A stretch of DNA of 64,000 nt from a virus. Lineage: Duplodnaviria; Heunggongvirae; Uroviricota; Caudoviricetes. Shown here in pieces: positions 2,383-38,926 of this stretch (the first letter of the stretch is position 1; every line of letters starts with the position of its first letter). The DNA lies in IMG/VR virus record IMGVR_UViG_3300044951_001136; one strand, written 5' to 3'. The translations under genes and the position numbers were made by a program. Under the pieces are notes generated by a model that was given only the letters and a program-made list of their open reading frames with translations, was not told the origin of the DNA and did no database searches.

Positions 2383-2388
2383 ACATAG

Positions 2389-18404: not shown

Positions 18405-20774
18405 ATGAGATTTAATCAAATAGTAGAAAATACAACAGCAGGATCGGTTGCCACCGTAGCACAGCCTATGATGACTCAAACCCGCGAAAATACTAATGTT
18501 CGTGGACTAAAACCAGTACAACAATTAATAAAGGGCAAATCTAAAAAGAAAGGTCCTTACGCTAATAGCATTGTAGAAAGCAAAGTCACTGAAGATGATC
18601 TTTCAGAACAAGACTTAATTGTTGTTCCTGGACAAGGCAGATTAAAAAGAACCGGATTTGTTAAACATGATTTAGATCAAGGTGAACATGAAGGCCACAC
18701 ATTAAAGAACAGTTTACACACTATCGCCCGTGCTGCCAGTGATTTAGACGAGAGATTATCTGTTCAATCTGAATTCCCAGAGTGGGTATCAGAGAAGATT
18801 GGCGCAGCAAAAAGCATGATGGTTAGTGTTATGGATTATCTAATCAGCAGCCAAGAGATGCAAGGTGTCGCGGAGGTTAGTGATGCTACTAAAGCAAGTT
18901 ATTTAGAAAAAGCAAAAGCACAAGTTAAAGGACTTACCCCAGATGCTAAAAAAGGTGAATATAAAGACATTGCTCAACGCATGATTTCACGGAGAGAAAA
19001 AGGTATCGATAGAGTAACACCAAAAGATGTGGAGGAAGGCTCCAAGTATCCTTGGTTAGATAATCCCAGAAAGAACCCCAACCCCAAACCAACAGAACCA
19101 GAGAAAGGTGTGTCAGAAGGCTCCAAGTATCCTTGGTTAGATAGTCCCAGAAAGAAACCAGAACCAGAGAAAGATGTGGCGGAAGGTTACGATCCCGGTG
19201 ATAAGATTACTTGGTATCACAGCAATCATTATCCTGAAATTGAAGGCACCATAGTTGGTTGGAAAGACGGGCATCTTATTGTTAAATCAGTTGATCCAAG
19301 CCCAAGAAACACCGAAAAGACTGTGGCAAAATATCGTGTTCCTAAAAATAATATTTTAAGTCATACAGAGCAAGGTGTGGCGGAAGGCTTTAATGAATCA
19401 TTAGATGATTTGAAATCAAAATATCAACATCACACTTACTTGTCAAGAACATATCTAAAGAGAGGTAACAAAGAAAAGGCTCAGCAGCATCACACTAAAG
19501 CATATGATATCAATCAACAGATAATGAAGCATCCTGATTACGAATTAAAGTTCATTGACGATCCGCGGACAAATGATGCACTTGCAATGAAACATGATAC
19601 AAGATTTAATGAGCAAGGTGTGGCGAAAGGCTCGAAAGGATTGAACGAGTTAGCACCACCTGAGCGTAAAGACGGTCAGGGAGATAGATTTTTCTTTCAG
19701 GAAGACTTTGAAAGCGACGACGGAAAATACATTATTGAAATTTATGCCGTGGCCGACAGTAACTCCTATGCAGTGTCGTTTCATCGTGGAGATAAACAAT
19801 ATGTAATGTATCCAATTGATGGACTTGATGCCGGTGATCTGTCAGAAGGTGCCGATCGGTATGTACAAGAAATTAAACAAAATGCGGCACACGGAAGTCA
19901 AAACGATTTTATAGGATTTTCTAGTATGGATTTGGAAGACTTTATACCTCCGGAGCAAGGTGTGTCAGAAGGCCAGTTAGATGAATTGAATAGAGACACT
20001 GTTACTTCTTACTATGACAAAGCGGAGAAAGATCAAGATAAACAATTTACCACTATTGGTAAAGGTATAAGAGACAATGACCCAAAATCTGCAAATAAAG
20101 CAGGTCATAAATTTTCAATGAGAAGTGTTGGATTGAATCGTGCAGAAAAACGGTTACAAGATAAAAATATAGCAGAAGGTGCTATGCCAGCATCAGTAAT
20201 TCGTGTCAAAGAAAAAATTCGCCTGATGACCGATGCTGAAAAGAAAGAATACTTCAAAGGCAAGACCCAAGCGCAATTACAACAAATGGCTAGGAGACAT
20301 GGCTATGGTGAAAATAGCAAGGTGTACGCCAAGTATGCAACACAAGATGTAGCGGAAGGCTCCAAGTATCCTTGGTTAGATAGTCCCAGAAAGAAACCCA
20401 AACCAACAGAACCAGAGAAAGATGTGGCGGAAGGCAGCTCTCCAAGTCCCTATATGTCAGACAAACAAGCTAACGCAGAGATGAAATTATGCCGTAAAGG
20501 ATACACACCTTCCACCCGCTGGTCCAGATATCCAAATTTCGACAAGGACGAAATTGCTGATATTGGCGCCGGTGGTAAAGAATACAATGTAAAGACTGAT
20601 GCTGCATGGGATGCTGCTAAGAAAAAAGTTAGTGAAGGTGCCAAAGTAGATCGTATGGTTAGTCATATTGAAAAGAGTGAAGAAAAGGCAGGCAAGTCAA
20701 AGAAAGTCGCTAAGAACATTGCTTGGGCAACTGCTAACAAACGCGGCATGTTAGATAACAAGAATAAGAAATAA
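18405..20774 (+). CDS. large charged repetitive protein (789 aa), putative packaged internal virion protein
   Basis: N-term MRFNQIVEN shared with 22370/38916/41464 proteins; about 9 copies of (E/K)QGV(A/S)EG-type motif; SKYPWLDxPRK segment three times. Confidence 0.6.
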   Translation: MRFNQIVENTTAGSVATVAQPMMTQTRENTNVRGLKPVQQLIKGKSKKKGPYANSIVESKVTEDDLSEQDLIVVPGQGRLKRTGFVKHDLDQGEHEGHTLKNSLHTIARAASDLDERLSVQSEFPEWVSEKIGAAKSMMVSVMDYLISSQEMQGVAEVSDATKASYLEKAKAQVKGLTPDAKKGEYKDIAQRMISRREKGIDRVTPKDVEEGSKYPWLDNPRKNPNPKPTEPEKGVSEGSKYPWLDSPRKKPEPEKDVAEGYDPGDKITWYHSNHYPEIEGTIVGWKDGHLIVKSVDPSPRNTEKTVAKYRVPKNNILSHTEQGVAEGFNESLDDLKSKYQHHTYLSRTYLKRGNKEKAQQHHTKAYDINQQIMKHPDYELKFIDDPRTNDALAMKHDTRFNEQGVAKGSKGLNELAPPERKDGQGDRFFFQEDFESDDGKYIIEIYAVADSNSYAVSFHRGDKQYVMYPIDGLDAGDLSEGADRYVQEIKQNAAHGSQNDFIGFSSMDLEDFIPPEQGVSEGQLDELNRDTVTSYYDKAEKDQDKQFTTIGKGIRDNDPKSANKAGHKFSMRSVGLNRAEKRLQDKNIAEGAMPASVIRVKEKIRLMTDAEKKEYFKGKTQAQLQQMARRHGYGENSKVYAKYATQDVAEGSKYPWLDSPRKKPKPTEPEKDVAEGSSPSPYMSDKQANAEMKLCRKGYTPSTRWSRYPNFDKDEIADIGAGGKEYNVKTDAAWDAAKKKVSEGAKVDRMVSHIEKSEEKAGKSKKVAKNIAWATANKRGMLDNKNKK
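19035..19066 (+). repeat. intragenic direct repeat copy 1 (GAAGGCTCCAAGTATCCTTGGTTAGATA...), approximate bounds
   Basis: Same about 30-45 bp DNA string at 19035, 19116 and 20355. Confidence 0.6.
19116..19196 (+). repeat. intragenic direct repeat copy 2, approximate bounds
   Basis: gaaggctccaagtatccttggttagatagtcccagaaagaaacc...gaaccagagaaagatgtggcggaagg shared with copy 3. Confidence 0.6.
20355..20435 (+). repeat. intragenic direct repeat copy 3, approximate bounds
   Basis: As copy 2. Confidence 0.6.
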
Positions 20775-20775
20775 T

Positions 20776-21927
20776 ATGAAACCATCAGATTTTTTAACAG
20801 AACTATCTAACGAAAAGTTAGCACAATACAAAACTGCTGCCGCAGCCGATGCCAGTAAAGCAGATAAAGAAAAAGATTTTGCTCGTGGCAACAAGCGTTT
20901 TAGTGGCATTGTAAAAGCAACTAATAAACAATTTGCAAATGATGTTAAGAAAGAATCAGTTGGTATACCTTATCCAGGAACATATGAAGAAACAAATGAT
21001 ATGTTCAAAGGTTCCGGACAAAGACGCACTGGTACACTAACAACCGAACAAGGTGTGTCGGAGGACAAGTTAAATGAATTAGATATCTTTGCTCCAGTGA
21101 CCACTTATGTTAGATTAGCCAATGGCACATACGTTGCAGCCAGTTGGCGCCGCAACCAAAATTTATCTACTGCAAGTAACTCAGCATCATTTATTGACAT
21201 AAAACCAGTGGCTCCTAATGTTGCTAAACAATTGGGATTAGATCAAAGACTAAATGATCCAGAAAAAAAATACACAGGTGCCGCAACGATTGCATCAGGT
21301 GGCCCTATTCAATCAAGCGGTCCACTTGCTGATAGAACTATTAACGTAGTTGATATTAGCGATCCAAAGGCTGCTACAGACCTCGGTGTTCCTGATACAC
21401 TCTTTGGAAAAATTGCTCAATGGGCGCAACAGCAAGGTCAAAAAGAACAAGGTGTGGCGGAGGAACAACATAGTTGCCCACACTGTAATGGACCAATGTT
21501 CAGTGAAATGATAATGAATGAAAAGAAAGATGCTTGCTACTATAAAGTAAAAAGCCGTTATAAAGTATGGCCAAGTGCCTATGCTAGCGGTGCATTAGTC
21601 AAATGTCGTAAAAAAGGTGCAAGTAATTGGGGTAATAGTAGTAAGAATGAAAGTTCTATACTAGAAGGCATAAATCAAACGGATGAAAGTTTACATGATT
21701 GGTTTAATAAAGAAAAGTGGGTTCGCATGGATACCAAAGGTAATATCAAGGGTCCATGTGCAAGAGAGCCGGGAGAAGGTAAACCAAAATGTTTGCCTCA
21801 AAGTAAAGCACACAGTTTAGGTAAAAAGGGTCGTGCAAGTGCAGCAGCAAGAAAACGCAGAGAAGATCCCAATCCAGAGCGTAGTGGTAAAGCCATCAAT
21901 GTCAACACAAAGAAAACTAAAGGATAA
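20776..21927 (+). CDS. putative internal virion / DNA-binding protein with strongly basic C-terminal tail and Cys cluster
   Basis: EQGVSED and EQGVAEE motifs; CPHCNGP...CYYK; C-term KGRASAAARKRREDPNPERSGKAINVNTKKTKG. Confidence 0.55.
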   Translation: MKPSDFLTELSNEKLAQYKTAAAADASKADKEKDFARGNKRFSGIVKATNKQFANDVKKESVGIPYPGTYEETNDMFKGSGQRRTGTLTTEQGVSEDKLNELDIFAPVTTYVRLANGTYVAASWRRNQNLSTASNSASFIDIKPVAPNVAKQLGLDQRLNDPEKKYTGAATIASGGPIQSSGPLADRTINVVDISDPKAATDLGVPDTLFGKIAQWAQQQGQKEQGVAEEQHSCPHCNGPMFSEMIMNEKKDACYYKVKSRYKVWPSAYASGALVKCRKKGASNWGNSSKNESSILEGINQTDESLHDWFNKEKWVRMDTKGNIKGPCAREPGEGKPKCLPQSKAHSLGKKGRASAAARKRREDPNPERSGKAINVNTKKTKG

Positions 21928-24772: not shown

Positions 24773-25357
24773 ATGCTCACTGAACACATTATTATTGAAT
24801 CCGCTACAAATGAATTGGCAAAACGCTTGCCGTCATTGCAAAAACATGACTACACAACGATTGACAAATTAATGCGTCAAGTTGCTAGTAGACATAGTAT
24901 TACTAGCAAAGCACTACATGACCTATTTGTGCGGAAATTCAAACGATCACCGGATAACTGGGTTAAGGGCAAGCTAGATGAAGAAAATGACGAACCAGAC
25001 TTTTTAGCAGATAACCCAATAATGCAGAAATTCATTCAATTTGCAGCACAAAAACTTAATCTACAATCAGTACCCGAAATTGAATTCAGCTACGATACTG
25101 AAGAAGCACAAGAAGGTCATCATACTGGTCGCCATAGTACAAATGATAATAATGTTTGGGTATATGTTGCTAATCGTAATATGGTTGATATTATGCGTAC
25201 GGTCCTGCATGAACTTACTCATGTCCGTCAAGGTGAATTGGATATGATTAAACCAGGTGATAGTTACCCAGGTAGTCCAATTGAAATGCTAGCTGATATG
25301 AGTGCCGGAAAATATATGAAAGTATTTGGCAAAGATCACCCGGAAATCTTTCAATAA
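24773..25357 (+). CDS. putative zinc metallopeptidase-like protein
   Basis: HELTHVRQGE HExxH motif near C-terminus. Confidence 0.45.
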   Translation: MLTEHIIIESATNELAKRLPSLQKHDYTTIDKLMRQVASRHSITSKALHDLFVRKFKRSPDNWVKGKLDEENDEPDFLADNPIMQKFIQFAAQKLNLQSVPEIEFSYDTEEAQEGHHTGRHSTNDNNVWVYVANRNMVDIMRTVLHELTHVRQGELDMIKPGDSYPGSPIEMLADMSAGKYMKVFGKDHPEIFQ

Positions 25358-25377
25358 AATCATTTCTATGCTATAAT
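25349..25377 (+). promoter_or_regulatory. extended -10 promoter (TTTCAA-N17-TGcTATAAT); -10 ends 6 nt before ATG 25384 (leaderless); TCTATGCTATAATGCATA shared with 44221
   Basis: Read in sequence. Confidence 0.45.
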
Positions 25378-25383
25378 GCATAG

Positions 25384-25992
25384 ATGCTTAAACTACTCTT
25401 TCCGTTGCCAAAAGAAGTTGTTGTCGCACTAAGCGGCGGGGTTGACTCTGTTGCTATTACAGATTTCCTTTCCCGTAAACATAAAGTAACTTGCGCTTTC
25501 TTCCATCATGGAACAGAGAATAGTGAACGGGCATTTGAATTTGTTGCTAAATTCTGCACTGAACGAAATCTTCCACTTATGGTTGGCCTGATTAAGAATG
25601 ATAAACCTAAAGTACTTAGTACAGAAGAACACTGGCGCAACGAACGCTATGACTTCTTGGACAGCTTTGGTGATTCATTGGGTCCAATTATTACCGGTCA
25701 TCACTTAGATGACTGCGTAGAAACATATCTTTGGTCATCAATGCATGGCCAGGCAAAAGTTATCCCAGCAAAAAGAAACAATGTAGTACGCCCATTTCTA
25801 ACAACAACTAAAACCGAATTCACAAATTGGTGTAAACAGAAATCTATTGATTGGTGTCACGATAATAGTAATGATGACACCAAATATATGCGTAACTATG
25901 TCAGACAACATATTATACCACACGCATTCCATATTAACCCCGGGCTAAGAACGGTGGTAAAAAAGATTGTAGAAAATCAGCAAAATGTTTGA
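25384..25992 (+). CDS. PP-loop ATP pyrophosphatase, TilS-like N-terminal domain (possibly a QueC-type role)
   Basis: VALSGGVDS PP-loop; ITGHHLDDCVETYLW and VVRPFL resemble TilS GHHxDDQAET / iRPLL; lacks the QueC Cys cluster; 202 aa. Confidence 0.65.
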   Translation: MLKLLFPLPKEVVVALSGGVDSVAITDFLSRKHKVTCAFFHHGTENSERAFEFVAKFCTERNLPLMVGLIKNDKPKVLSTEEHWRNERYDFLDSFGDSLGPIITGHHLDDCVETYLWSSMHGQAKVIPAKRNNVVRPFLTTTKTEFTNWCKQKSIDWCHDNSNDDTKYMRNYVRQHIIPHAFHINPGLRTVVKKIVENQQNV

Positions 25993-26038: not shown

Positions 26039-26299
26039 ATGTCAGCAAAAATGTTTACAGGTGAGCAAAAAATTAAGTTAACCCAATTGGTGAATGAAGG
26101 AATGGTAGTCCTACATGAGATTGATACCCTTCGTGAGGGACTATCCGATACTATTAAGGCTATTGGTGAAGAACTAGAAGTTAAGCCTAGTATACTTAAG
26201 AAAGCAATCTCTGTGGCACACAAAGCAAGTCTTGGCCAAACCACTGCTGACCACGAAGAACTTGTGACAATTTTGGAAACTGTGGGAAAAACTTTATAA
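26039..26299 (+). CDS. hypothetical protein (86 aa)
   Basis: ORF, TAATG-coupled to DNA polymerase. Confidence 0.45.
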   Translation: MSAKMFTGEQKIKLTQLVNEGMVVLHEIDTLREGLSDTIKAIGEELEVKPSILKKAISVAHKASLGQTTADHEELVTILETVGKTL

Positions 26300-29004
26300 T
26301 GTCATATGTGGATGCAATACATTCCAGAGATGAAGATAAAATTTTTGTAGTAGAACGGGATAAGAATGGCAAGCGTCAATACAAAGAATATTCCACAAAC
26401 TATGTACTGTATTATCCTGATCGTAAGGGCAAGTATCGCAGTATATACGGTGACCCCGTAAATCGTTTCAGCACACGCAAACGACAAGAGTTTGAAAAAG
26501 AAAGACGCATCCATTCAGGTAAGAAATTATTTGAAAGTGATGTACCAGTGGTGTTTCGTTGCCTTAGTGAAAACTATCTTAAGGCAGATGTTCCCAATCT
26601 GCATACTTGCTTCTTTGACATTGAAACTGATTTTGATCCGATTAAGGGGTTTAGTCCAACAACCGATCCGTTCAATCCAGTAACCGCTATCAGTTGTTAT
26701 CTAGATTGGCTGGATCAATTGGTTACATTGGTCATTGCTCCCAAGCATATGAGTAAAGAAACAGCACAGGAAATTTGTAATGAGTTTGAAAACTGTTTAC
26801 TTTTTGCCAATGAGAAGGATATGTTTGATGTTTTCTTTCAACTCATTGAAGATGCTGATGTATTGACTGGTTGGAACTCAGAAGGATATGACATACCTTA
26901 CATGGTTAATCGGGTTACCCGAGTAATGAGTAAAGATGATACACGCAAGTTTTGTTTGATGGGTCAACTGCCTAAACCACGCACATATGAACGGTTTGGT
27001 AAAGAAGAACAAACATACGACTTAGTTGGTCGTATTCATTTGGACTACTTACAACTCTACAAGAAATACAACTATGAATCCCGTCACAGCTACAAGTTAG
27101 ATGCGATTGGTGAAATGGAAGTAGGAGAAAACAAAACTCAATACGAAGGTACGCTAGATCAATTGTATAACAAAGACTTTAAAAAGTTTATTGAATACAA
27201 CAGACAAGATACTATGTTGTTGGTGAAGATTCACAACAAACTTAAGTTTTTAGAACTTGCTAATCAATTGGCGCACGAGAACACTGTACTGCTTCCAACA
27301 GTCATGGGTTCAGTAGCAATGGTTGAGATGGCAATTTTTAATGAAGCCCACGAACGTGGATTGGTAGTGCCAGACAAAAAACGAAAGATTGAAAATGCAG
27401 AAGAAACAACGACAGCAGCAGGTGCCTTCGTTGCTACGCCGAAAAGAGGCATGCACGAATATGTCGGAGCAGTTGACATCAACTCGCTCTATCCCTCGGT
27501 TATTCGTGCCCTCAACATGGCAGGAGAAACCATCATCGGTCAAGTCCGACAGACATTAACTGACAAGTATATGGACGACAAAGGCAAGCAACTTGCTAGC
27601 GTTAAGAAACGATTCAAAGAGGGTGACGAGGACGTTACTGGTGCTATTCTTTGGGAAAACTTGTTTAGCGTATTAGAATATACTGCTATTATGAATCAAG
27701 AACGCGGAACAATACTGACATTAGACTACGAAGATGGCAGGTCAGTAGAGATGAGTGCAGCCGAGATTTGGAAGATGATTTTTGATAGCAATCGCCCATG
27801 GATGTTGTCAGCTAATGCTACTATCTTTACTTACGAAAAAGAGGGTGTAGTCCCTGGACTACTTACTCGCTGGTATAGTGAGCGTAAAGAAATGCAAGCT
27901 AAAGCTAAATCAGCTTATGGCACTGATCAATATGAATATTTTGATAAGCGTCAGCTTGTTCGTAAAATTTTGTTGAACTCAGCATATGGTGCGTTGTTGA
28001 ATGAGCATTGCAGATTCTATGATAAGCGCATCGGTCAAAGTGTTACCTTGAGTGGTCGTCAGATTGTTAAGCATATGATGAGTACAATCAATGAAACAAT
28101 CGCAGGTGAATATTCACATGATGGTCAAGCTATTGTGTATGGAGATACTGACTCATGTTATTTTACTGCATATCCTATTCTCAAAACACAAATAGCAAGT
28201 GGTGAACTAGAGTGGAACAAAGAAACTTGTATCGGCTTGTATGATAGTATAGCTGATCAAGCAAATGAATCATTCCCTGCATTCATGGAAAAGGCATTTC
28301 ATGCCCCAAGAAAGAACGGTGAAATCATCAAAGCTGGTCGTGAATTGATTGGTGATCGTGCTATCTTCATCACAAAGAAACGCTATGCCATCAATATCTT
28401 TGATAAAGAAGGCAAGCGTAAAGATATCAATGGTAAGAATGGTGATATCAAAGCGACGGGCCTTGACTTAAAGCGTGCCGATACCCCAAAGTATATACAA
28501 GAATTCTTAATGACGGTGCTTACAAAGGTCCTTGCTGGTGAGCAGCGGGACAAAGTTATTGAAATGGTTAAAGAATTCAAAAACAAGTTGTCTGAACAAG
28601 ATAGCTGGACAAAGGGATCACCAAAGAGTGTTAACAATCTAACTAAACATACTATTGAGTTTGAAAAGTCGGGCAAGTGTGGTGTTGGTCATGCCCGAGC
28701 AGCAATTAACTGGAACTATCTACGCAGAGTATACGGGGATAATTACAGTCAAAAGATTATAGATGGTATGAAGATTGTTGTATGTAAACTCAAAGATAAT
28801 GCATTGGGATTCACTAGTATTGCATATCCGGTTGATGAATTAAGATTACCACAATGGTTCAAAGACTTGCCATTTGATGATTTACTAATGGAATCAACAC
28901 TAGTAGATGAGAAGATAGACAACTTACTTGGTGTATTGGATTGGGATATCAGAAGTAATACTGATGTTAACTCAACATTTGATGATTTGTTCAGCTTCGG
29001 GTAA
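26299..29004 (+). CDS. family-B DNA polymerase (T4 gp43-like) with 3'-5' exonuclease domain
   Basis: FFDIETD exo I; DINSLYPSV motif A; NSAYGAL motif B region; VYGDTDSCYF motif C. Confidence 0.9.
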   Translation: MSYVDAIHSRDEDKIFVVERDKNGKRQYKEYSTNYVLYYPDRKGKYRSIYGDPVNRFSTRKRQEFEKERRIHSGKKLFESDVPVVFRCLSENYLKADVPNLHTCFFDIETDFDPIKGFSPTTDPFNPVTAISCYLDWLDQLVTLVIAPKHMSKETAQEICNEFENCLLFANEKDMFDVFFQLIEDADVLTGWNSEGYDIPYMVNRVTRVMSKDDTRKFCLMGQLPKPRTYERFGKEEQTYDLVGRIHLDYLQLYKKYNYESRHSYKLDAIGEMEVGENKTQYEGTLDQLYNKDFKKFIEYNRQDTMLLVKIHNKLKFLELANQLAHENTVLLPTVMGSVAMVEMAIFNEAHERGLVVPDKKRKIENAEETTTAAGAFVATPKRGMHEYVGAVDINSLYPSVIRALNMAGETIIGQVRQTLTDKYMDDKGKQLASVKKRFKEGDEDVTGAILWENLFSVLEYTAIMNQERGTILTLDYEDGRSVEMSAAEIWKMIFDSNRPWMLSANATIFTYEKEGVVPGLLTRWYSERKEMQAKAKSAYGTDQYEYFDKRQLVRKILLNSAYGALLNEHCRFYDKRIGQSVTLSGRQIVKHMMSTINETIAGEYSHDGQAIVYGDTDSCYFTAYPILKTQIASGELEWNKETCIGLYDSIADQANESFPAFMEKAFHAPRKNGEIIKAGRELIGDRAIFITKKRYAINIFDKEGKRKDINGKNGDIKATGLDLKRADTPKYIQEFLMTVLTKVLAGEQRDKVIEMVKEFKNKLSEQDSWTKGSPKSVNNLTKHTIEFEKSGKCGVGHARAAINWNYLRRVYGDNYSQKIIDGMKIVVCKLKDNALGFTSIAYPVDELRLPQWFKDLPFDDLLMESTLVDEKIDNLLGVLDWDIRSNTDVNSTFDDLFSFG

Positions 29005-29069: not shown

Positions 29070-29636
29070 ATGATACAACAAATTGAATTTACTAGAAATA
29101 ATAGTTTCCCAATAAAATTATTTAAAAAAGAAAAAGCATTAAGTTTTGATATTTGCCATTCACTACGAGAGTTTGCATTAAGCAGTGAATCAGGCTGGCA
29201 TCGTTCTGTTAATCGTACTCCCAAACATTGGGACATTGAATGCCATACTTGTAGAGTACCTTTAAATTGGAATGACAATAAATTACACGAAATATTGTCT
29301 CCTATTTGGGAAGAAGCGTTTAACTATTATGGTTTTCATGTAACTCATGTAGAACAATATGAGATAAAAAGATATAGCGAAGGAGATTACGTCACAGAAC
29401 ATGTTGACCAATATTATGGCACAGCAGGTACTGAACGAAAATTAACAATGCTATTGCAATTAACTGATGGATCAGAATATCAGGGAGGCAATCTTCATGT
29501 AATTAGGAATGCGGTAAGTAAAACAATAGGATCATTGACCATTTTACCTGCATTCTATTTACATGAAGTAAAACCAATAACAGCAGGTGAACGATGGTCA
29601 CTGAATTGTTGGGCATGGGGCCCATATTGGAAGTGA
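29070..29636 (+). CDS. 2OG-Fe(II) oxygenase (prolyl-4-hydroxylase-like)
   Basis: TEHVDQ (HxD), LHEVKPI (distal His), RWSL (RxS) in the expected order. Confidence 0.75.
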   Translation: MIQQIEFTRNNSFPIKLFKKEKALSFDICHSLREFALSSESGWHRSVNRTPKHWDIECHTCRVPLNWNDNKLHEILSPIWEEAFNYYGFHVTHVEQYEIKRYSEGDYVTEHVDQYYGTAGTERKLTMLLQLTDGSEYQGGNLHVIRNAVSKTIGSLTILPAFYLHEVKPITAGERWSLNCWAWGPYWK

Positions 29637-29695: not shown

Positions 29696-30427
29696 ATGAA
29701 AGATTTTTTAAAAGACTTAATTGATCATACTCTTGGTCTTGGTACAATTGAACTGATTAAAGTTACAGGTACTGATACTGAAACAGTAATCAATGCGGTA
29801 GCAGAAAACAAAAGCGTAATTATTAGTGGTACATTCAAAGATCCGATTGCCGACTTTATTGGTGTATTCGGAATGCCCAACTTGAATAAACTCAAGACAA
29901 TTATTGGGTTTGATGAATATGACGGAACATCTAAAATTAATGTTGTTCGTACTCAACGTGACGGGGTAGATGTACCTTCTACTATTCACTTTGAAACAAA
30001 GAGTGGTGACTTTGTTAATGATTATCGTCTTATGCTTAAAAGTGTAGTTGACGAGAAAGTTAAAAGTGTATCCTTTAAGGGTGCTAAGTGGAATGTTGAA
30101 TTTGAACCTACAATTGCTGGTATTCAACGACTTAAGAAGCAATCACAAGCAAATAGCGAAGAAGATCATTTTGTATTCAAAACTGATGGAAGTGATTTGA
30201 AAGTATACTTTGGTGACGCATCAACACATAGCGGTAACTTTGTATTCAATACTCCAGTTACCGGAACACTAGCTGGTACACATAAGTGGCCCGTTAAAGA
30301 ATTCTTGAGTATCATGGATTTAGTCGGGGACAAGACAGTTAAGATTAGTGAACAAGGTGCAACGGAAATCACAGTTGATAGTGGTATAGCAATTTATGTT
30401 TACTTGTTGCCAGCTAATAAGAAATGA
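29696..30427 (+). CDS. hypothetical protein; size, position and composition compatible with a gp45-like sliding clamp
   Basis: Start moved to ATG 29696 (ORF-track frame 29594 overlaps the previous gene); about 244 aa; weak similarity only. Confidence 0.4.
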   Translation: MKDFLKDLIDHTLGLGTIELIKVTGTDTETVINAVAENKSVIISGTFKDPIADFIGVFGMPNLNKLKTIIGFDEYDGTSKINVVRTQRDGVDVPSTIHFETKSGDFVNDYRLMLKSVVDEKVKSVSFKGAKWNVEFEPTIAGIQRLKKQSQANSEEDHFVFKTDGSDLKVYFGDASTHSGNFVFNTPVTGTLAGTHKWPVKEFLSIMDLVGDKTVKISEQGATEITVDSGIAIYVYLLPANKK

Positions 30428-31982
30428 TCAAGAGTATCAATTGAAACAAGATAATCTATCAGCGAAGCATAACCCAGATTGGGCATTGTTCTTACCCGCA
30501 GTCAGTAGTTTTTATATTGCTGGCTTGGGTAAGCAACGTAAGGGTGAAAACTATTTTGACCAAGCACGTATCCCTGCCAGTTTCAAAGGTGATGTAGAGA
30601 AACTAAACTTTCTTAACAGCAAAGAAGGTCTTTACTACTACAAGTGGGGACTATACAGTGCTGGTCACGCTAATTTGGATACTACCAAAGATGATTCAAG
30701 TGAATCAATCATCCGTGAACGTGAAGAAGGTACATTCATATTGGGCGATAGTGGTGGCTTTCAGATTTTAAAAGGTCAATGGCCAGCTGATTGGAAGGAT
30801 CCCAACTGTCCACGGGCTATGGTAAAGCGTAAAGCAGTATTGAATTGGATGGACACATACATGGATTATGGTATGTGTTTAGATATTCCAAGTCAATCAT
30901 TGACTACATTTGGAATGAAAGATAAGAACGGCAACAGTTTACACGGTATCAGTACTATTGAAGAAGCCATTGCAGCTACACATATTAATAACGAATACTT
31001 TATAAATAATCGCTCAGGGAAATGCAAGTTATTAAATGTATTACAGGGTCGCAATCATACTCAATCAGATGATTGGTATGAAGAAATGAAAAAGTATTGC
31101 GATACTAACATCTTTCCAGATAATCATTTCAATGGCTGGGCATTCGGTGGACAGAACAAGATTGATATACATTTAATGCTACGTAGATTAGTTGGTATTA
31201 TCCATGATGGATTGTTAGTTGAAGGTAAGCATGATTTGATTCATTGCTTGGGAACAAGTATCTTGGAATATGCTGTGTTGTTTACTGATATACAGAAGGC
31301 AATACGAAAGTATCATAATCCAAAACTACAAATTACATTTGACTGTGCCAGCCCATTCTTTAGTGCTGCTAAAGGATTGGCATATTTCAATACTAATATC
31401 CAGCATAATAAAAAATGGTCTTACAGCATGGAAAAGACTGCTGAAAAGAAAAGTTATGCCAATGATAATCGCAAGTATCGTGATGCTGTATTAGCTGATG
31501 GTATACATAAATTATTTACAGATAGTCCAGTAACTGATGCATTAGTTATGAAAGATTTATGTTATCGTGGTGTAGGTTTCTTGGGACAGCACGGTAAAGA
31601 AACTAAAACAAGTTGGGATACATTAAGTTATACACTGTTACAAAGTCACAATGTTTGGATGCATATGAATGCAGTTCAAGAGGCTAATCGTCAGTATGAA
31701 CAAGGTGTAGTTCCAAAGATGTTAGTACATAAGTTTGAAGGTGATAGGTTCTTTACTCAATTAGTTGATGAAATCTTTGCAAAGAAAACTAAACAAGAAT
31801 CACTAGATTTGATTGATTTTCATAATAGTTATTGGAAACAATTCCAATCAGGTAGTCAGGGTATTAGTGGTAAGAAAACTGTTAATGCTATGAGTATGTT
31901 TGATGAATTGTTTTCAGTAGATGAAGAACCGTTAGAAGAACTAGAAGATAGTGATGATGCTATCGCATTAGTTTTGGAGTAA
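30396..31982 (+). CDS. tRNA-guanine-transglycosylase-like protein, candidate DpdA (7-deazaguanine DNA transglycosylase)
   Basis: FILGDSGGFQIL matches the TGT catalytic-Asp motif (DSGGFQ); TIM-barrel-sized; clustered with FolE/QueD/QueE. Confidence 0.7.
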   Translation: MFTCCQLIRNDQEYQLKQDNLSAKHNPDWALFLPAVSSFYIAGLGKQRKGENYFDQARIPASFKGDVEKLNFLNSKEGLYYYKWGLYSAGHANLDTTKDDSSESIIREREEGTFILGDSGGFQILKGQWPADWKDPNCPRAMVKRKAVLNWMDTYMDYGMCLDIPSQSLTTFGMKDKNGNSLHGISTIEEAIAATHINNEYFINNRSGKCKLLNVLQGRNHTQSDDWYEEMKKYCDTNIFPDNHFNGWAFGGQNKIDIHLMLRRLVGIIHDGLLVEGKHDLIHCLGTSILEYAVLFTDIQKAIRKYHNPKLQITFDCASPFFSAAKGLAYFNTNIQHNKKWSYSMEKTAEKKSYANDNRKYRDAVLADGIHKLFTDSPVTDALVMKDLCYRGVGFLGQHGKETKTSWDTLSYTLLQSHNVWMHMNAVQEANRQYEQGVVPKMLVHKFEGDRFFTQLVDEIFAKKTKQESLDLIDFHNSYWKQFQSGSQGISGKKTVNAMSMFDELFSVDEEPLEELEDSDDAIALVLE

Positions 31983-32988: not shown

Positions 32989-33663
32989 ATGGCGTATAAT
33001 AAGCAAAAAACAGACCCAGAGTTGGGTCAACGAGTACACGAACATTTAGTTAAGATGGGAGTTGAAACTCCTACTATCCCAAACAACTACGACCGTAAAG
33101 AAAAGATAGACCATATTGAAGCGCACTTTGCACATATTATGCGTATCTTAGGTCTTGACTTATCAGACGATAGTTTAATGGATACCCCAAAGCGTGTAGC
33201 AAAAATGTATGTCAACGAAATCTTTTGGGGTCTTGATTACGAAGCATTCCCTAAATGTACCGCAGTTGATAACAAAATGAAGTACAATGAAATGGTATGT
33301 GAACGCAATATTAATGTACAAAGTAATTGTGAACATCATTTAGTGATTATCTCCGGTCTAGCAACTGTCGCATATGTGCCTAAACAAAAGGTACTTGGAT
33401 TGAGTAAAATCAATCGTATCGTAGAATACTTTAGCAAGCGACCACAAATCCAAGAACGATTAACAGAACAAGTCTTTCACGCATTACAATACATACTTGA
33501 AACAGAAGATGTTGCGGTTATGGTTGACGCACAACATTACTGTGTGAAAAGCAGGGGAGTTGAGGATACGGGTAGTAGTACTGTAACAAGTAGATTAGGT
33601 GGTGGGTTTAAAACTGATCCAGCAGCTAGAGCAGAATTCTATCAATTAGCAAGGGGACGATAA
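32989..33663 (+). CDS. folE: GTP cyclohydrolase I
   Basis: NCEHHLVIISG ... LGLSKINRIVEYFSKRPQIQERLT ... DAQHYCVKSRG conserved FolE core. Confidence 0.9.
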   Translation: MAYNKQKTDPELGQRVHEHLVKMGVETPTIPNNYDRKEKIDHIEAHFAHIMRILGLDLSDDSLMDTPKRVAKMYVNEIFWGLDYEAFPKCTAVDNKMKYNEMVCERNINVQSNCEHHLVIISGLATVAYVPKQKVLGLSKINRIVEYFSKRPQIQERLTEQVFHALQYILETEDVAVMVDAQHYCVKSRGVEDTGSSTVTSRLGGGFKTDPAARAEFYQLARGR

Positions 33664-33845: not shown

Positions 33846-34068
33846 ACCAATGGACTATACCGGTGTTCATCATCAAATTTACACAGCTGGAATAGAATTG
33901 CATAGCAACTACAACGATGGTTTCAATCAGTTTGAAATCAAAAAAGACTTACATCGTATCAAGTGGTTGCTTGATGAGATTATGGCTGATTCACCTACAT
34001 TCGCCGGCGAAGAAGAATTTCTTGATGAACATTCTAAAATAAAGATGTGGAGAACATTAAAAAAATGA
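33832..34068 (+). CDS. hypothetical protein (78 aa)
   Basis: Start moved to ATG 33832 after GAGGAAAA SD. Confidence 0.35.
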   Translation: MGFRKPMDYTGVHHQIYTAGIELHSNYNDGFNQFEIKKDLHRIKWLLDEIMADSPTFAGEEEFLDEHSKIKMWRTLKK

Positions 34069-34526
34069 TATTCAACAGAATCAAAGAACTAAAACAACAA
34101 GGGCTTAAGATAGGTATCGTATTCTCCCAATTTGATATTCTACATGCCGGGCATATTGCAATGCTTAGTGAAGCTAAAAATCATTGCGACTATCTTATTG
34201 CTGGTTTGCAGAATAACGCACAATGGGATAGAGCGGAGAAGAATGCTCCTATTCAAAGTATTGTTGAGAGGCAGATTAGTTTAAGTGCTGTCCGTTTTGT
34301 AGATGAAATTGTTGTTTACAATACTGAGAAGGACTTGGAAGATATTCTACTCATACTACCTATTGATGTTCGTATCTTGGGTGTAGAATACAAAGATAAG
34401 GATTTTACGGGTAGCGATATTTGTCAAACTCGCAGAATTGAAATAGTATTTAATGAGCGTGATCACAGTTTCAGTAGTTCAAGTCTACGTAAACGAGTTG
34501 CGGACGCACATCAAAAAGATAAGTAA
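34047..34526 (+). CDS. cytidylyltransferase-fold nucleotidyltransferase, TagD / RfaE-domain-II-like
   Basis: GIVFSQFDILHAGHIAML (HxGH), DYLIAGL, C-terminal DHSFSSSSLRKRV (ISxTxIR-like) parallel B. subtilis TagD; alternative start ATG 34065. Confidence 0.7.
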   Translation: MENIKKMIFNRIKELKQQGLKIGIVFSQFDILHAGHIAMLSEAKNHCDYLIAGLQNNAQWDRAEKNAPIQSIVERQISLSAVRFVDEIVVYNTEKDLEDILLILPIDVRILGVEYKDKDFTGSDICQTRRIEIVFNERDHSFSSSSLRKRVADAHQKDK

Positions 34527-34527
34527 A

Positions 34528-35031
34528 ATGACACAACTACCAGTAACATATAAGTGGACTTCCACAAAAGAGTATCACGATGCGTTCCCCTGTGCTTATA
34601 GACAGTACAAAGCCGACAGCCATTGCCAGTTTTTACATGGTTATAGCTTCTCAATGAAGTTCTATTTTGGAACAAACGACTTAGATGCGCGCCGATGGGC
34701 TGCGGATTATGGCGGCTTGAAAGAACTAAAGCAAACATTAGAGAGTCAATTTGACCATACAACATTAGTGGCTGAATCAGATCCACATCTAGACTGGTAT
34801 GTGCAGGCGGAACATCGTGGCATTATGAAATTAACTATTCTCCCCAACTTAGGATGTGAAAGTCTTGCAGATATGCTATACAAGTATGTTAACGGGGTTT
34901 ACATTCCTGATATGTGGGGTGAAAGTGAAGCAAAGCGTTTGTGGTGCTATCGGGTTGAAGTACGTGAAACACAGGCAAATATGGCTTTTAGAGAGGGGCA
35001 TCGTGAATGGAATGAGGATTTGTTTGAATGA
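34528..35031 (+). CDS. queD: 6-carboxy-5,6,7,8-tetrahydropterin synthase (QueD / PTPS family)
   Basis: SHCQFLHGYSFSM (Cx3HGx) and EHRG T-fold motifs; start moved to ATG 34528 after upstream TAA. Confidence 0.75.
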   Translation: MTQLPVTYKWTSTKEYHDAFPCAYRQYKADSHCQFLHGYSFSMKFYFGTNDLDARRWAADYGGLKELKQTLESQFDHTTLVAESDPHLDWYVQAEHRGIMKLTILPNLGCESLADMLYKYVNGVYIPDMWGESEAKRLWCYRVEVRETQANMAFREGHREWNEDLFE

Positions 35032-35413: not shown

Positions 35414-36262
35414 ATGAGCAAATTAAAAATTAGTGAACTATTTTATAGTATTCAAGGAGAAGGCCGATATATCGGAGTACCAAGTATTTTCCTACGAACA
35501 TTTGGTTGCAACTTCAAATGTGCAGGGTTTGGTATGCCAAGGGGCGAAATAAGTAGTGAAGTAGAAGATATCGCAGCCCGTGTGCATTACTACACGGCTT
35601 ACACCCAACTACCATTAGTTAGTACAGGTTGCGATAGTTATGCAAGTTGGGATCCTCGTTTCAAAGATTTCAGTCCAATACGTACTACTGATAGTATTGT
35701 TGAAAGTATTATGACAATGCTTCCGCACAAGCGTTGGATGGAAGAACATCTTGTTATTACAGGGGGTGAACCTTTGCTAGGTTGGCAACGCAGTTATATT
35801 GATTTACTTTCACATGAAAACATGACGGGTTTACAAGAACTAACATTTGAAACAAATGGCACTCAACCGTTGCAACATCAATTGAAAACCTACTTGCATC
35901 AATGGGCCATCAATCGTTCTAGAGGTGCAATAACATTTAGTGTTAGTCCTAAACTTGGTATCAGTGGCGAGAAGTGGGAAGAAGCAATATGTCCTGAAAT
36001 TATTGATGAATATAGTCAAGTAGGTCATACATATCTGAAGTTTGTTGTGGCCAATAGACAAGATGTAGAAGAAGCACAAGAAGCAGTTAATCAATATCGT
36101 ACTCACGGATTTAGGGGTAATGCTTACTTGATGCCATGTGGCGGAGTTGAAAGTGTATATAACATGAATGCCAAAACAGTTGCACTTGAAGCAATGCGGT
36201 TAGGCTGGCGTTATAGTGATAGACTTCAGGTGCCACTCTTTAAAAACGCATGGAATACCTAA
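35414..36262 (+). CDS. queE: 7-carboxy-7-deazaguanine synthase (QueE, radical SAM) with atypical Cys motif
   Basis: ISELFYSIQGEGRYIGVPSIFLRTFGCNFKC parallels E. coli QueE MFQTLQGEG...GCPVGCAWC; third Cys is replaced (CAGF). Confidence 0.75.
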   Translation: MSKLKISELFYSIQGEGRYIGVPSIFLRTFGCNFKCAGFGMPRGEISSEVEDIAARVHYYTAYTQLPLVSTGCDSYASWDPRFKDFSPIRTTDSIVESIMTMLPHKRWMEEHLVITGGEPLLGWQRSYIDLLSHENMTGLQELTFETNGTQPLQHQLKTYLHQWAINRSRGAITFSVSPKLGISGEKWEEAICPEIIDEYSQVGHTYLKFVVANRQDVEEAQEAVNQYRTHGFRGNAYLMPCGGVESVYNMNAKTVALEAMRLGWRYSDRLQVPLFKNAWNT

Positions 36263-36587: not shown

Positions 36588-36778
36588 ATTTAGAAATGCG
36601 CTGGCTTATAACAGCTGGTTGGGACGGCCCTGAAAAAATACTACAATATCGCTTTGAAAGAGAAACACCGGATTACTGTATACTAAATCCAAAAACAGGT
36701 GAAATTACAAAACAAAATGAGTTAACTGATTGGATTACTGTTCCAACGGTAGATGAGGTTAAGAATGCGAACATATAA
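36584..36778 (+). CDS. hypothetical protein (64 aa)
   Basis: ATGA-coupled ORF. Confidence 0.35.
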   Translation: MNLEMRWLITAGWDGPEKILQYRFERETPDYCILNPKTGEITKQNELTDWITVPTVDEVKNANI

Positions 36779-38096: not shown

Positions 38097-38926
38097 AAAA
38101 AATATTAATTACAGGTTGTTCGGGTTACATTGGTAGTCATCTAGTTAAGATGCTAGCAAATGACTACGAGGTACACGGCCTAGATATCAATGTTCCGCAA
38201 GCTGACGGATTACAAGAATTCTATCAAGTTGATATTCGTAGACTATTTGAATTACCAACCGAGTTTGATGCAACGATTCACTTGGCAGCACTAGTCAATG
38301 TGGGTGAAAGTGAGCGTATCCCACTAAGTTATTACATCACTAATTTGAATGGTACAATGAATGTTATCAATAAGGTACGGACAAAGAACTTTATATTTGC
38401 CAGCACTGGAGCAGCAGTGGGATGTGCTAGTGCGTATGGCATTAGTAAACGAGCAGCAGAGGATGTGGTGCGTGAGTATTTTACTCAGCATAATCCTAAA
38501 CCTTATACAATATTTAGATTCTACAATGTTATTGGTAGTGATGGGTTTGATCCAACCAATCCTGATGGATTAATGTATAATCTAATGAAGGCTAAGGAAA
38601 GAGGCGAGTTTACCATCTTTGGCAATGATTATGATACACGAGATGGAACCTGCATTCGTGATTATGTTCATGTTAACGAGATATGTGACGCATTATGTAC
38701 TGCTATTGAGAAGCCAAGTAATCAAATAGAATGTTTAGGGCATGGGGTAGGTTATACTGTTGCCGAGATAGTTAATAAGTTCAAAGAAGTAAATAATATA
38801 CCTAATATTAATTTGCTTACAAAGATAGGCCCAAGAAGAAAGGGTGACTTAGCAATATCTGTATTAGATAATGTGTCACCCTATATGAAAGAGGTATACT
38901 CTTTGGAAGATTTGCTTAAGATTTAA
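38093..38926 (+). CDS. NAD-dependent epimerase/dehydratase (extended SDR, GalE-like but shorter)
   Basis: ILITGCSGYIGSHL Rossmann; YGISKRAAE YxxxK catalytic motif. Confidence 0.75.
   Translation: MKKILITGCSGYIGSHLVKMLANDYEVHGLDINVPQADGLQEFYQVDIRRLFELPTEFDATIHLAALVNVGESERIPLSYYITNLNGTMNVINKVRTKNFIFASTGAAVGCASAYGISKRAAEDVVREYFTQHNPKPYTIFRFYNVIGSDGFDPTNPDGLMYNLMKAKERGEFTIFGNDYDTRDGTCIRDYVHVNEICDALCTAIEKPSNQIECLGHGVGYTVAEIVNKFKEVNNIPNINLLTKIGPRRKGDLAISVLDNVSPYMKEVYSLEDLLKI

Follow-up and report, generated by a model that had tools for sequence, protein, structure and literature searches.

A large jumbo-phage family of stand-alone TilS catalytic domains, most likely minimal tRNA(Ile2) lysidine synthetases

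The window analysed here, a 64,000-nucleotide stretch of a Caudoviricetes virus (IMG/VR record IMGVR_UViG_3300044951_001136), contains 7-deazaguanine genes without a recognisable QueC, together with a small PP-loop protein, and the question raised by this locus is what that protein does. The preliminary description had implied three biosynthesis genes with QueC as the expected fourth, and had offered three options for the missing QueC: that the PP-loop protein is a minimal lysidine-synthetase-like tRNA modifier, that it replaces QueC, or that the phage stops at CDG. FolE, QueD and a QueE-like protein are present in the window, and a recognisable QueC is lacking there. All on the plus strand, FolE lies at 32989..33663, a CTP_transf_like protein at 34047..34526, QueD/PTPS at 34453..35031 (34528..35031 in the JGI call) and the QueE-like radical SAM protein at 35414..36262. 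A probable DpdA/TGT-like transglycosylase with the motif GDSGGFQ is encoded at 30396..31982, also on the plus strand; like the other four it is a context gene, apart from the function of the PP-loop protein. The two supports for this 528-aa DpdA-like protein are the GDSGGFQ motif and an hhalign match of 93% to a weak phage TGT-domain protein; it gave no match in PDB sequences, Pfam or PHROGs, and its AF2 model (pLDDT 49.6) was too poor for a fold search.

The PP-loop protein, called mini-TilS below, is encoded on the plus strand at 25384..25992, from an ATG at 25384 to a TGA at 25990-25992. An earlier start is ruled out because an in-frame TAG (25381-25383) lies directly 5' of the ATG. The sole early alternative, a TTG at codon 8, was rejected, as it has no Shine-Dalgarno sequence and would clip the conserved N-terminus. 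The six-frame scan located the ATP-binding PP-loop motif SGGVDS at residues 17-22 (25432..25449, plus strand) and found no second SGGxDS ORF in the 64-kb window, which, with the ORF check, agreed with the earlier statement that this 202-aa product is the only PP-loop protein there. More than 1000 metagenomic homologues argue that it is not a chance ORF; the 120 listed among them were mostly 196-207 aa long and 65-97% identical.

The preliminary description had also assigned a TilS-type signature to this protein. The motifs in question are present, namely GHHLDDCVETYLW at residues 105-117 (25696..25734, plus strand), which is general to the PF01171 family, and RPFL at residues 136-139. However, HHxDDxET and RPL are also common to TtcA and TtuA and hence are not specific to TilS. 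The evidence that does point specifically to TilS consists of the TIGR02432 score and a C-terminal D-x-S-N...R-N-x-x-R motif, which in this protein is D160-N-S-N163...R170-N-Y-V-R174 (25861..25905, plus strand).

Profile, sequence and structure searches all placed the protein with TilS. TIGR02432 (lysidine_TilS_N) scored 129 bits against a trusted cut-off of 93.6 and was aligned over profile positions 2-189 of 189, and Pfam returned PF01171 at 5e-36. In contrast, the QueC model PF06508, which detected the QueC of Vibrio phage 2.275.O at 1.6e-50 as a positive control, gave no match to mini-TilS at E<=0.01; the comparison of TilS_N with QueC models proposed earlier thus pointed to TilS. The PDB sequence matches were TilS proteins exclusively, at 1e-14 to 1e-21. 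The AF2 model of mini-TilS had a pLDDT of 92.6, and its best PDB fold was Aquifex TilS (2E21, TM about 0.86); 2E21, 1WY5 and 2E89 (TM 0.83-0.87) were followed by 1NI5 (0.78), TtuA matched at TM 0.73-0.79, and no QueC structure was among the best 50 fold matches. Identity with TtcA, TtuA or MnmA was rejected, since the scores were far under the cut-offs (NCBIfam scores against cut-offs of 24 against 272 for TtcA, 20 against 500 for NcsA and 17.5 against 450 for TtuA) and the Fe-S cysteines are lacking. The tRNA thiolases TtcA, TtuA and NcsA (PF01171) share HxDDxxET, RPL and the core fold with mini-TilS, but mini-TilS is without their Fe-S/Zn cysteine motifs and has the TilS-specific C-terminal motif instead.

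The family comprised 158 clusters (50% identity, E<1e-30), and almost all members among the 150 clusters listed had lengths of 180-230 aa. In an alignment of 152 members, 29 columns were at least 85% conserved, and 18 of these 29 carried the same residue in the TilS proteins of Aquifex, Geobacillus and E. coli. Residues H42, R85, R88, D110, E113, G122, R136, P137, D160, N163, R170, R174 and P179 were identical in these three crystallised enzymes and conserved in at least 85% of the 152 members; for D160, N163, R170 and R174 conservation in the family was at least 95%. The SGGVDS positions were kept in 92-96% of the members and in all three crystallised proteins. The family-specific residue is Cys111 within GHHLDDCVETYLW, which is Gln in Geobacillus and E. 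coli TilS (DDQxET) and Leu in Aquifex. Mini-TilS is thus a large jumbo-phage family of stand-alone TilS catalytic domains of about 200 aa, with the catalytic residues conserved.

Bacterial TilS proteins of type I (E. coli, Geobacillus; NTD, CTD1 and CTD2) and type II (Aquifex; NTD and CTD1) have the catalytic NTD in common with mini-TilS, including the PP-loop, the conserved Arg, Asp, Glu, Asn and His residues, the D-x-S-N...R-N-x-x-R subdomain and the fold, but their C-terminal domains are missing from it. The ORF at 25384..25992 encodes the N-terminal catalytic domain alone, with neither CTD1 nor CTD2: the protein aligned to residues 21-227 of the 317 of Aquifex TilS, ending where the linker to CTD1 begins, and the full-length TilS equivalog NF007942 scored 75 against a cut-off of 606. 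The earlier observation that the C-terminal tRNA-binding domains are absent was therefore upheld. No Pfam match to a TilS C-terminal domain was found in the neighbouring ORFs, and no conserved neighbour gene able to supply the missing domain in trans was common across lineages. The TilS literature describes all TilS proteins as carrying one or more appended domains, with CTD1 as the minimum (PMC11947777, PMC12514573), and deletion of CTD2 alone causes a sharp loss of activity (PMC11947777). Because CTD1 is universal in described TilS and the CTD2 deletion has this effect, an enzyme consisting of the NTD only may have low activity, lack specificity or need a partner.

The genomic surroundings of the family in other phages were then compared. 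In the complete megaphage genome LR745206 (634,780 bp), mini-TilS is the sole SGGxDS ORF and is flanked by two tRNA arrays, with 59 tRNAs genome-wide. Among 25 IMG/VR loci of other lineages, 18 had tRNAs within 10 kb (1-28 each, on the same strand as mini-TilS); a tRNA lay 15-45 nt from the mini-TilS ORF in five of these loci, and an elongator-type CAU tRNA lay 70-517 nt from it in four. No que genes were found near mini-TilS in the 25 loci. In the complete genome of PA5oct, mini-TilS lies downstream of a cluster of 12 tRNAs, at a distance of about 6-10 kb; the cluster includes two CAU tRNAs with identical bodies that differ in the acceptor stem alone. One of them was compared by BLAST and matched E. 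coli genes annotated as tRNA-Ile along its whole length at 87% identity, and no tRNA-Ile besides the CAU tRNAs was found in PA5oct. Judging from this similarity, at least one of the two CAU tRNAs is of the Ile2 type. Across lineages the family is thus associated with tRNA arrays.

The locus of the window differs in this respect. The search for tRNA genes gave none in the 64-kb window or in flanks of 10 kb on either side, which together cover about 84 kb of the 234.5-kb source contig, none in two related short contigs, and none in about 215 loci belonging to its clade (135 around mini-TilS and 80 at relatives of a gene 9 kb past the end of the window). This absence of tRNAs from the window, its flanks and the clade loci leaves a phage-encoded substrate tRNA hypothetical here and weighs against a lysidine synthetase; a host tRNA-Ile2 is presumably present as a possible substrate. 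A scan of IMG/VR with the tRNA-Ile2 anticodon-arm pattern GCGACTCATAATCGC gave at least 120 matches, and those listed were on unrelated contigs.

Codon usage was also determined. The frequency of AUA was 42 per 1000 codons in PA5oct and 46 per 1000 in megaphage LR745206; in P. aeruginosa it was 0.9 per 1000, so that PA5oct uses AUA about 47 times more than its host. The TilS of P. aeruginosa was among the least active of those tested (PMC12514573). In the 64-kb window AUA amounted to 13.6-15.5 per 1000 codons, or 21-24% of the Ile codons. In megaphage LR745206 two tRNA-Ile(UAU) genes were present; this pair could decode AUA without lysidine, which weighs against the reading as a lysidine synthetase.

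Taken from the family, the fold and the tRNA-array linkage, the most probable reading is that mini-TilS is a tRNA(Ile2) lysidine synthetase reduced to a stand-alone catalytic domain, and we give this a probability of about 0.7. With TIGR02432, the fold and the tRNA arrays behind it, the first of the three original options has become the best supported. With ATP, mini-TilS would adenylate C2 of the wobble cytidine C34 in a CAU-anticodon tRNA, and transfer of lysine, the second presumed substrate, would then yield an isoleucine tRNA reading AUA. Such an activity would raise the AUA-decoding capacity of an AT-rich jumbo phage in an AUA-poor host. As both C-terminal tRNA-recognition domains are missing, the enzyme would have to read the anticodon arm alone or use a partner protein.

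The same PP-loop chemistry might instead be directed to another target or nucleophile, such as C34 of several CAU tRNAs including the host elongator tRNA-Met, a non-lysine amine, or another RNA. In favour of this, the domains that tell tRNA-Ile2 from tRNA-Met are absent (PMC11947777), and the acceptor stem, where the two PA5oct CAU tRNAs differ, would be unreadable to an enzyme that has the NTD only; the lack of any phage tRNA in the clade and the family-specific Cys in the DDxxET motif are also consistent with it. However, the residues common to the crystallised TilS enzymes, including those of the C-terminal subdomain, are kept, which favours the canonical substrates, and positive evidence for an alternative target is absent. 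We consider a changed target unlikely.

The second of the original options was that mini-TilS is a non-orthologous QueC. It would then activate the CDG carboxylate by adenylation, whether CDG is free or in DNA, and amidate it with ammonia or another amine, so supplying the DpdA-like enzyme with ADG, preQ0 or a new amide of CDG. QueC belongs to the same PP-loop ATP pyrophosphatase superfamily as mini-TilS and shares its adenylation-amidation chemistry, and there is a weak alignment over about 50 N-terminal residues (PHROG 1550, residues 10-65). The distribution of genes in three genomes is also suggestive. PA5oct, like the window, has FolE, QueD, QueE and a DpdA-like gene, and no QueC was found in its complete genome, in which mini-TilS is the only PP-loop ORF. 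Vibrio phage 2.275.O, a syntenic relative, shows the complementary pattern, with a true QueC and QueF and without mini-TilS. In the clade of the window the DpdA-like gene follows mini-TilS about 4.4 kb downstream, and the DNA of PA5oct has a G modification that is as yet unidentified (PMC12191111).

The remaining data weigh against a QueC function. The preliminary description had reported that the QueC zinc cysteines are lacking, and this was found to be so: the cysteines of the 202-aa protein are at positions 37, 58, 111, 150 and 158, and it contains no CxxC, in contrast to the C-x2-C-x2-C zinc site of QueC (CGVCPSC in 2.275.O). The QueC of 2.275.O matched it in the PP-loop region only, at E>=0.23. 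Neither the profile search nor the fold search gave a QueC match. Megaphage LR745206 has mini-TilS and none of the pathway genes (FolE, QueD, QueE and DpdA-like, no match at E<=0.01), and in the other lineages mini-TilS is embedded in tRNA arrays without neighbouring que genes. In PA5oct mini-TilS adjoins the tRNA cluster, while QueE and the DpdA-like gene are 49-53 kb away and FolE and QueD more than 100 kb. Between the PolB/DpdA-like-adjacent clade and the lineages with tRNA arrays, 47 columns were at least 90% conserved in both, and 46 of them had the same residue in each; the TilS-specific residues were all kept. This identity argues against a functional shift in the copies adjoining que genes. 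Host QueC or end products derived from CDG moreover account for the known phages without QueC (PMC10516641). A replacement of QueC is therefore highly improbable, and mini-TilS is probably not a step of the 7-deazaguanine DNA-modification pathway. We give just as little weight to a recruitment limited to the PA5oct/freshwater lineage, in which a TilS without its CTDs would join CDG or dCDG with ammonia or an amino acid such as lysine, leading to QueC-free ADG or preQ0 or to an amide-linked hypermodified guanine; if true, it would account both for the G modification of PA5oct and for the complementary pattern of QueC and mini-TilS with respect to 2.275.O. Whether the pathway halts at CDG, the third original option, or borrows the host QueC is a separate question from the function of mini-TilS.

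TilS crystallises as a dimer, and the PDB TilS entries contain several chains per entry. With the truncated architecture and the lack of a conserved partner gene nearby, this would fit an accessory protein, for example a decoy that binds tRNA or ATP and protects CAU tRNAs against anticodon nucleases of the host, or a subunit pairing with host TilS, but the ATP-binding and catalytic residues are conserved over more than 150 divergent clusters, which argues for retained catalysis and makes a non-catalytic role the least probable of these readings.

Other viral TilS proteins can be set beside mini-TilS. The putative TilS of PA5oct and MIJ3 (Wroclawvirus; EST35_0433 and MIJ3 gp263) belongs to the same family of about 200 aa and was 41.7% identical over its full length. 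Phages of this type share homologous PolB, DpdA-like, QueE, FolE, QueD and Clp/DnaJ modules with the phage of the window, but the PA5oct gene is near a tRNA cluster and remote from PolB and the que genes, unlike the gene in the window. The MIJ3 paper describes gp263 simply as a host-like gene, unusual and of unknown role, and mentions neither the truncation nor Ile2-type tRNAs (PMC6892783). The TilS of the Ralstonia jumbo phage RsoM2USA (ORF84, 349 aa) is also encoded by a jumbo phage, alongside 44 tRNAs (PMC8504454), but it falls outside the family of about 200 aa: its length is like that of type II, which suggests that a C-terminal domain is kept, and its match to mini-TilS by tblastn was weak (27.5% identity, E 3e-4). 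For the putative TilS of chloroviruses, which infect eukaryotes as giant viruses, the likeness is in the proposed logic.

Discrimination of tRNA-Ile2 from tRNA-Met is regarded as the central problem of TilS, for which an appended tRNA-binding domain is taken to be universal (PMC11947777, PMC12514573). A family with the catalytic domain only is a natural experiment on the minimal protein for lysidine formation, and it raises the question of whether mini-TilS discriminates at all or turns any CAU tRNA into an AUA reader. A lysidine synthetase of this kind, if that is what it is, would explain how very AT-rich jumbo phages translate AUA in hosts nearly without AUA. For 7-deazaguanine biology the data call for caution, in that it would be wrong to take a mini-TilS PP-loop gene for the missing QueC.

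The promoter of the gene was also analyzed. The hexamer TATAAT at 25372..25377 lies exactly 6 nt before the ATG and is preceded by TG at 25369-25370, forming an extended -10 element (TGnTATAAT), and no Shine-Dalgarno sequence is present before the ATG. A weak -35-like sequence, TTTCAA (25349..25354, plus strand), lies 17 nt upstream of the -10 and overlaps the tail of the preceding ORF; relatives whose spacer is unoccupied have TTGACA or TTGACT (TTGACW) at the -35 position, 17 nt upstream. Among 78 distinct upstream sequences of relatives, TAnnnT was at exactly -12 to -7 from the ATG in 69 and the TG of the extended -10 was kept in 65. The earlier proposal of a promoter giving a leaderless mRNA was thereby strengthened, with the spacing of 6 nt confirmed, its register conserved and a Shine-Dalgarno lacking. 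PA5oct-type phages rely on the host RNA polymerase (PMC7318152), and mini-TilS would be transcribed from this host-type extended -10 promoter, with a predicted transcription start that puts the 5' end of the mRNA at or adjacent to the AUG. The PA5oct gene, in contrast, starts at a TTG behind a Shine-Dalgarno sequence and not at a leaderless palindrome such as the one described next.

The -10 hexamer is also the loop of a perfect 7+7 palindrome, TCTATGC-TATAAT-GCATAGA (25365..25384, not assigned to a strand), which ends on the A of the ATG and had been overlooked in the preliminary description. The palindrome arms covary across relatives. A role as a terminator was rejected, as the scan flagged the element on the minus strand only, where there is no gene to terminate. 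For leaderless expression in phages, a conserved palindromic promoter that runs into the start codon offers a minor lead of its own. A second copy of the element, tctatgt-TAAAAT-acataga, is located at 2370..2389 (likewise without strand), with TTGATT as its -35 sequence 17 nt upstream, and it ends in the ATG at 2389 of the ORF 2389..2898.

An ORF running from an ATG at 25384 to the end of its stop codon at 25992 (+ strand) encodes a 202-aa PP-loop protein, here called mini-TilS, with SGGVDS at residues 17-22, GHHLDDCVETYLW at residues 105-117 and RPFL at residues 136-139; the position, length and SGGVDS motif given in the preliminary description were reproduced exactly. An in-frame TAG lies directly 5' of the ATG, so no earlier start is possible. 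FolE, QueD/PTPS, a QueE-like radical SAM protein and a 528-aa TGT-like GDSGGFQ protein are encoded 4-11 kb downstream, and the remark that no recognizable queC accompanies these 7-deazaguanine genes holds within the 64-kb window, where a six-frame scan found no second SGGxDS ORF.

Mini-TilS matched PF01171 in Pfam (5e-36) and scored 129 bits against a cut-off of 93.6 with TIGR02432, the NCBIfam equivalog of the TilS N-terminal domain, while no QueC family was matched. The models of TtcA, TtuA, MnmA and GuaA scored far under their cut-offs, including the two (TtcA and MnmA) named beforehand as competing identities. PHROG 1550 ('QueC-like') covered just the PP-loop stretch, residues 10-65. The only strong PDB sequence matches were TilS proteins (Aquifex, 2e-21; Geobacillus, 1e-16; E. 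coli, 4e-14), and the alignment with Aquifex TilS ended at residue 227 of 317, at the start of the linker to CTD1. The AlphaFold2 model (pLDDT 92.6) was closest to Aquifex TilS (TM 0.83-0.87), followed by E. coli TilS (TM 0.78) and TtuA (TM 0.73-0.79), with no QueC structure among the top 50 matches. The evidence specific to TilS is the TIGR02432 score and the C-terminal subdomain, D-x-S-N...R-N-x-x-R, which is present in mini-TilS (D160, N163, R170, R174). The motifs originally cited as a TilS-type signature, HHxDDxET and RPL, are common to the whole PF01171 family.

Among 90%-identity clusters, 1048 relatives were found at E<=1e-5, and the 120 listed were mostly 196-207 aa long (range 189-238). 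In a representative library of 1.84 billion proteins, the hits at E<1e-30 formed 158 clusters (50% identity); of the 150 listed, almost all measured 180-230 aa. When 152 family members were aligned with three crystallised TilS N-terminal domains, 29 columns reached a conservation of 85% or more within the family, and at 18 of these the three bacterial TilS all have the family's residue. These 18 columns spanned the PP-loop, H42, R85, R88, D110, E113, G122, R136, P137, D160, N163, R170, R174 and P179. Because the family is large, uniform in length and conserved in TilS residues, it is, as judged from sequence, a distinct and strongly constrained clade of TilS proteins with the catalytic domain only. 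TilS enzymes are stated always to have at least one appended domain, CTD1, and deletion of CTD2 alone to cause a dramatic drop in activity (PMC11947777, PMC12514573). The catalytic-domain-only architecture is thus an uncharacterised form of this well-known enzyme. The protein itself adds to a phage family that already bears the TilS annotation: the member in Pseudomonas phage PA5oct is labelled 'tRNA(Ile)-lysidine synthetase', and that of MIJ3 was singled out as a peculiarity with no known role (PMC6892783).

An identical protein was found on freshwater metagenome contig JGI 3300044984 (234,546 bp) and on many shorter contigs. DNA polymerase B (PolB) places the window with Rak2/Atu_ph07/PA5oct-type jumbo phages, and gene content and order resemble those of PA5oct; the modules in common are DnaJ-ClpA, PolB followed by a structural protein and a DpdA-like gene, QueE, RNase H, ligase, and ClpX-HSP20-ClpS-ClpP. 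The PolB gene of the window (26299..29004, 901 aa) is intact; it is broken up by ORFs of 129 and 329 aa in two close relatives with identical mini-TilS (L003 and L006), and that of PA5oct is likewise split by a homing endonuclease. These interruptions look like a mobile intein or homing-endonuclease polymorphism. A 150-aa gene lies 46.5 kb downstream of mini-TilS in the source contig, and its homologue lies about 45 kb upstream in two relatives of more than 230 kb, 3300027733_001253 (L022/L320) and 3300027969_000039 (L023/L369), pointing either to a large rearrangement of modules in this clade or to a paralogue. Two large ORFs at 18405..21927 (789 and 383 aa) with the repeating modules EQGV(A/S)EG and GSKYPWLD(S/N)PRKKP(E/K)P received no family assignment.

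The genomic neighbourhood of mini-TilS was compared at 160 IMG/VR loci. At the 135 loci of the window's clade (at least 54% identity), the gene lies beside PolB and, where the contig is long enough, the DpdA-like gene, with no tRNA within 10 kb. At the 25 loci of other lineages (41-48% identity), PolB, DpdA-like and FolE genes were never nearby, and 18 had same-strand tRNAs (1-28) within 10 kb. In five of the 25 a tRNA lay 15-45 nt from the ORF, and in four an elongator-type CAU tRNA with C4-G69 lay 70-517 nt away, two of these also having C5-G68. Megaphage LR745206 (634,780 bp, 29% GC, 59 tRNAs) encodes a 195-aa, 42% identical mini-TilS, its only SGGxDS ORF, between two tRNA arrays; tblastn with window and PA5oct queries found no FolE, QueD, QueE or DpdA-like match at E<=0.01, so the family exists without the 7-deazaguanine pathway.

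In the complete PA5oct genome (286,783 bp), mini-TilS (EST35_0433, 41.7% identical) lies about 6-10 kb downstream of a 12-tRNA cluster and 49-53 kb from QueE and the DpdA-like gene. Two PA5oct genes annotated tRNA-Met(CAU), 267558-267634 and 268039-268115, have identical bodies and different acceptor stems (C3-G70 versus G3-C70). G3-C70 is diagnostic of tRNA-Ile(CAT) (PMC1635315), and the 268039-268115 gene, which carries it and was the one of the two tested by BLAST, matched E. coli genes with a tRNA-Ile annotation along its whole length at 87% identity. It at least is probably tRNA-Ile2, and would then fill the phage's otherwise missing Ile tRNA, since no other tRNA-Ile is encoded in the genome; the third 'tRNA-Met(CAU)' gene looks like an initiator. 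AUA makes up 42 per 1000 codons of PA5oct (56% of Ile codons). In P. aeruginosa the figure is 0.9 per 1000, and the TilS of this host ranked among the least active tested (PMC12514573).

Family-wide, mini-TilS is thus linked to tRNA arrays and very high AUA usage. Together with the TilS identity, the tRNA-linked relatives support the minimal lysidine-synthetase-like tRNA modifier first proposed, and we give lysidine synthetase activity a probability of roughly two in three. The enzyme would adenylate C2 of C34 in a CAU tRNA and then transfer lysine, yielding an AUA-specific tRNA-Ile2 and more AUA-decoding capacity during infection, a rationale also proposed for chlorovirus TilS (PMC7589089). 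Without CTDs it would have to read the anticodon arm only or need a partner, and no conserved neighbouring partner gene was found. AUA is moderately frequent in the window (13.6-15.5 per 1000 codons, 21-24% of Ile codons). The weak point for the window's phage is the substrate tRNA: neither the 84 kb read (window and flanks) nor about 215 loci of the clade yielded a tRNA gene, so the substrate may be host tRNA-Ile2 or a phage tRNA encoded elsewhere, or the enzyme may be less specific. Related chemistry with altered specificity is a rather unlikely alternative. Among the columns at least 90% conserved in both the window's clade and the tRNA-array lineages, 46 were identical and one differed (position 140, Thr versus Leu, with Leu in PA5oct), and the comparison gives no sign of functional divergence between que-linked and tRNA-linked proteins.

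Replacement of QueC by mini-TilS, also suggested initially, appears improbable. PA5oct encodes FolE, QueD, QueE and a DpdA-like homologue and lacks QueC, mini-TilS being its only SGGxDS ORF, and in the syntenic Vibrio phage 2.275.O a genuine QueC (PF06508, 1.6e-50) is present and mini-TilS absent. However, this complementarity rests on three genomes and is weak evidence; it is outweighed by LR745206, by the tRNA-rich loci of other lineages and by the same residue in 46 of 47 shared columns, which leave the replacement unsupported. As a tblastn query, the 2.275.O QueC matched just the PP-loop region of mini-TilS genes (E>=0.23) and nothing else in the window, flanks, PA5oct, megaphage or 245 loci. 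Nor does the missing queC need a replacement, since known phages with FolE, QueD, QueE and DpdA and without QueC either have CDG-derived end bases or can use host enzymes (PMC10516641); whether the phage stops at CDG is independent of mini-TilS. A non-catalytic role is the least probable of all; the ATP-binding and conserved TilS residues of the catalytic domain are intact.

The 2.275.O cluster (L313, 330216-344727) lies beside PolB and comprises a DpdA-like gene, a protein with a weak amidoligase-like match, QueF, YhhQ-type transporter, QueC, Gat-like amidotransferase, FolE, QueE and QueD. It predicts a preQ1-type or further modified base, whereas the window and PA5oct sets lack both QueC and QueF. 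Resistance of PA5oct DNA to several restriction enzymes follows a pattern that points to modified G (PMC12191111). The 528-aa ORF of the window (30396..31982) had no Pfam, PHROG or PDB sequence match and its AlphaFold2 model was poor (pLDDT 49.6). Its GDSGGFQILKG motif and an hhalign match (93%) to a weak TGT-domain protein from Vibrio phage GR7B make it a probable divergent DpdA-type transglycosylase. The family is very abundant, with 5958 relatives at E<=0.001; since most of the homologues measure 513-518 aa, translation probably begins 10-15 codons further downstream. PolB and the DpdA-like gene flank a 2OG-Fe(II) oxygenase gene (29070..29636), for which a counterpart was detected in only a minority of the loci of relatives. 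Genes for a glycosyltransferase-like protein and for an NAD-dependent epimerase/dehydratase (36753..38926) follow QueE. These are possible DNA-modification tailoring enzymes, or unrelated. A cytidylyltransferase-like ORF (34047..34526) between FolE and QueD overlaps the longest QueD ORF call. It may lie outside the pathway, since homologues (63-67% identical) occur in three other mini-TilS lineages (L269, L274, L288) with no que genes in readable flanks.

The -10 hexamer TATAAT was confirmed at 25372-25377, 6 nt before the ATG and preceded by TG (TGcTATAAT). On either side of this hexamer, 7-nt arms match perfectly, giving a 7+7 palindrome (TCTATGC-TATAAT-GCATAGA, 25365..25384) with the hexamer as its loop and the A of the start codon as its final base. 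Among 78 distinct upstream sequences of the window's clade, 69 had TAnnnT at exactly -12..-7 from the ATG (TATAAT 40, TATACT 13, TACAAT 7, TATCAT 6, TAGACT 2, TACACT 1) and 65 kept the extended -10 TG. A TTGACA/TTGACT box lay 17 nt upstream where the upstream ORF did not overlap, and no Shine-Dalgarno sequence was found upstream of the clade's mini-TilS. A sigma-70-type reading is reasonable because PA5oct depends on host RNA polymerase (PMC7318152). The leaderless mRNA proposed earlier is thus a well-founded prediction from sequence comparison. In contrast, the PA5oct homologue has a TTG start and a Shine-Dalgarno sequence and is not leaderless.

The palindrome arms covary (e.g. ctatgc/gcatag, ctgtgt/acacag, ttgtgc/gcacaa). 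In 47 distinct sequences, 82% of cells paired versus 74% in shuffles and both sides changed in 32 cells versus 13 expected, with neither value reached in 500 shuffles, although the sequences are related to each other and the test is indicative only. Slid registers scored far lower. The palindrome could be an operator, or a hairpin occluding the AUG in read-through transcripts. A second element, tctatgtTAAAATacataga (tctatgt-TAAAAT-acataga), at 2370..2389, has a -35 TTGATT 17 nt upstream and, at its end, the ATG of ORF 2389..2898 (169 aa); JGI called this ORF from 2449, 60 nt later (PF07733 DNA_pol3_alpha fragment). The recurrence suggests that one control element is common to a small class of leaderless genes. 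At 44223..44238, upstream of ORF 44292..46268, the motif occurs in a shortened form, tatgcTATAATgcata, out of register with any ATG.
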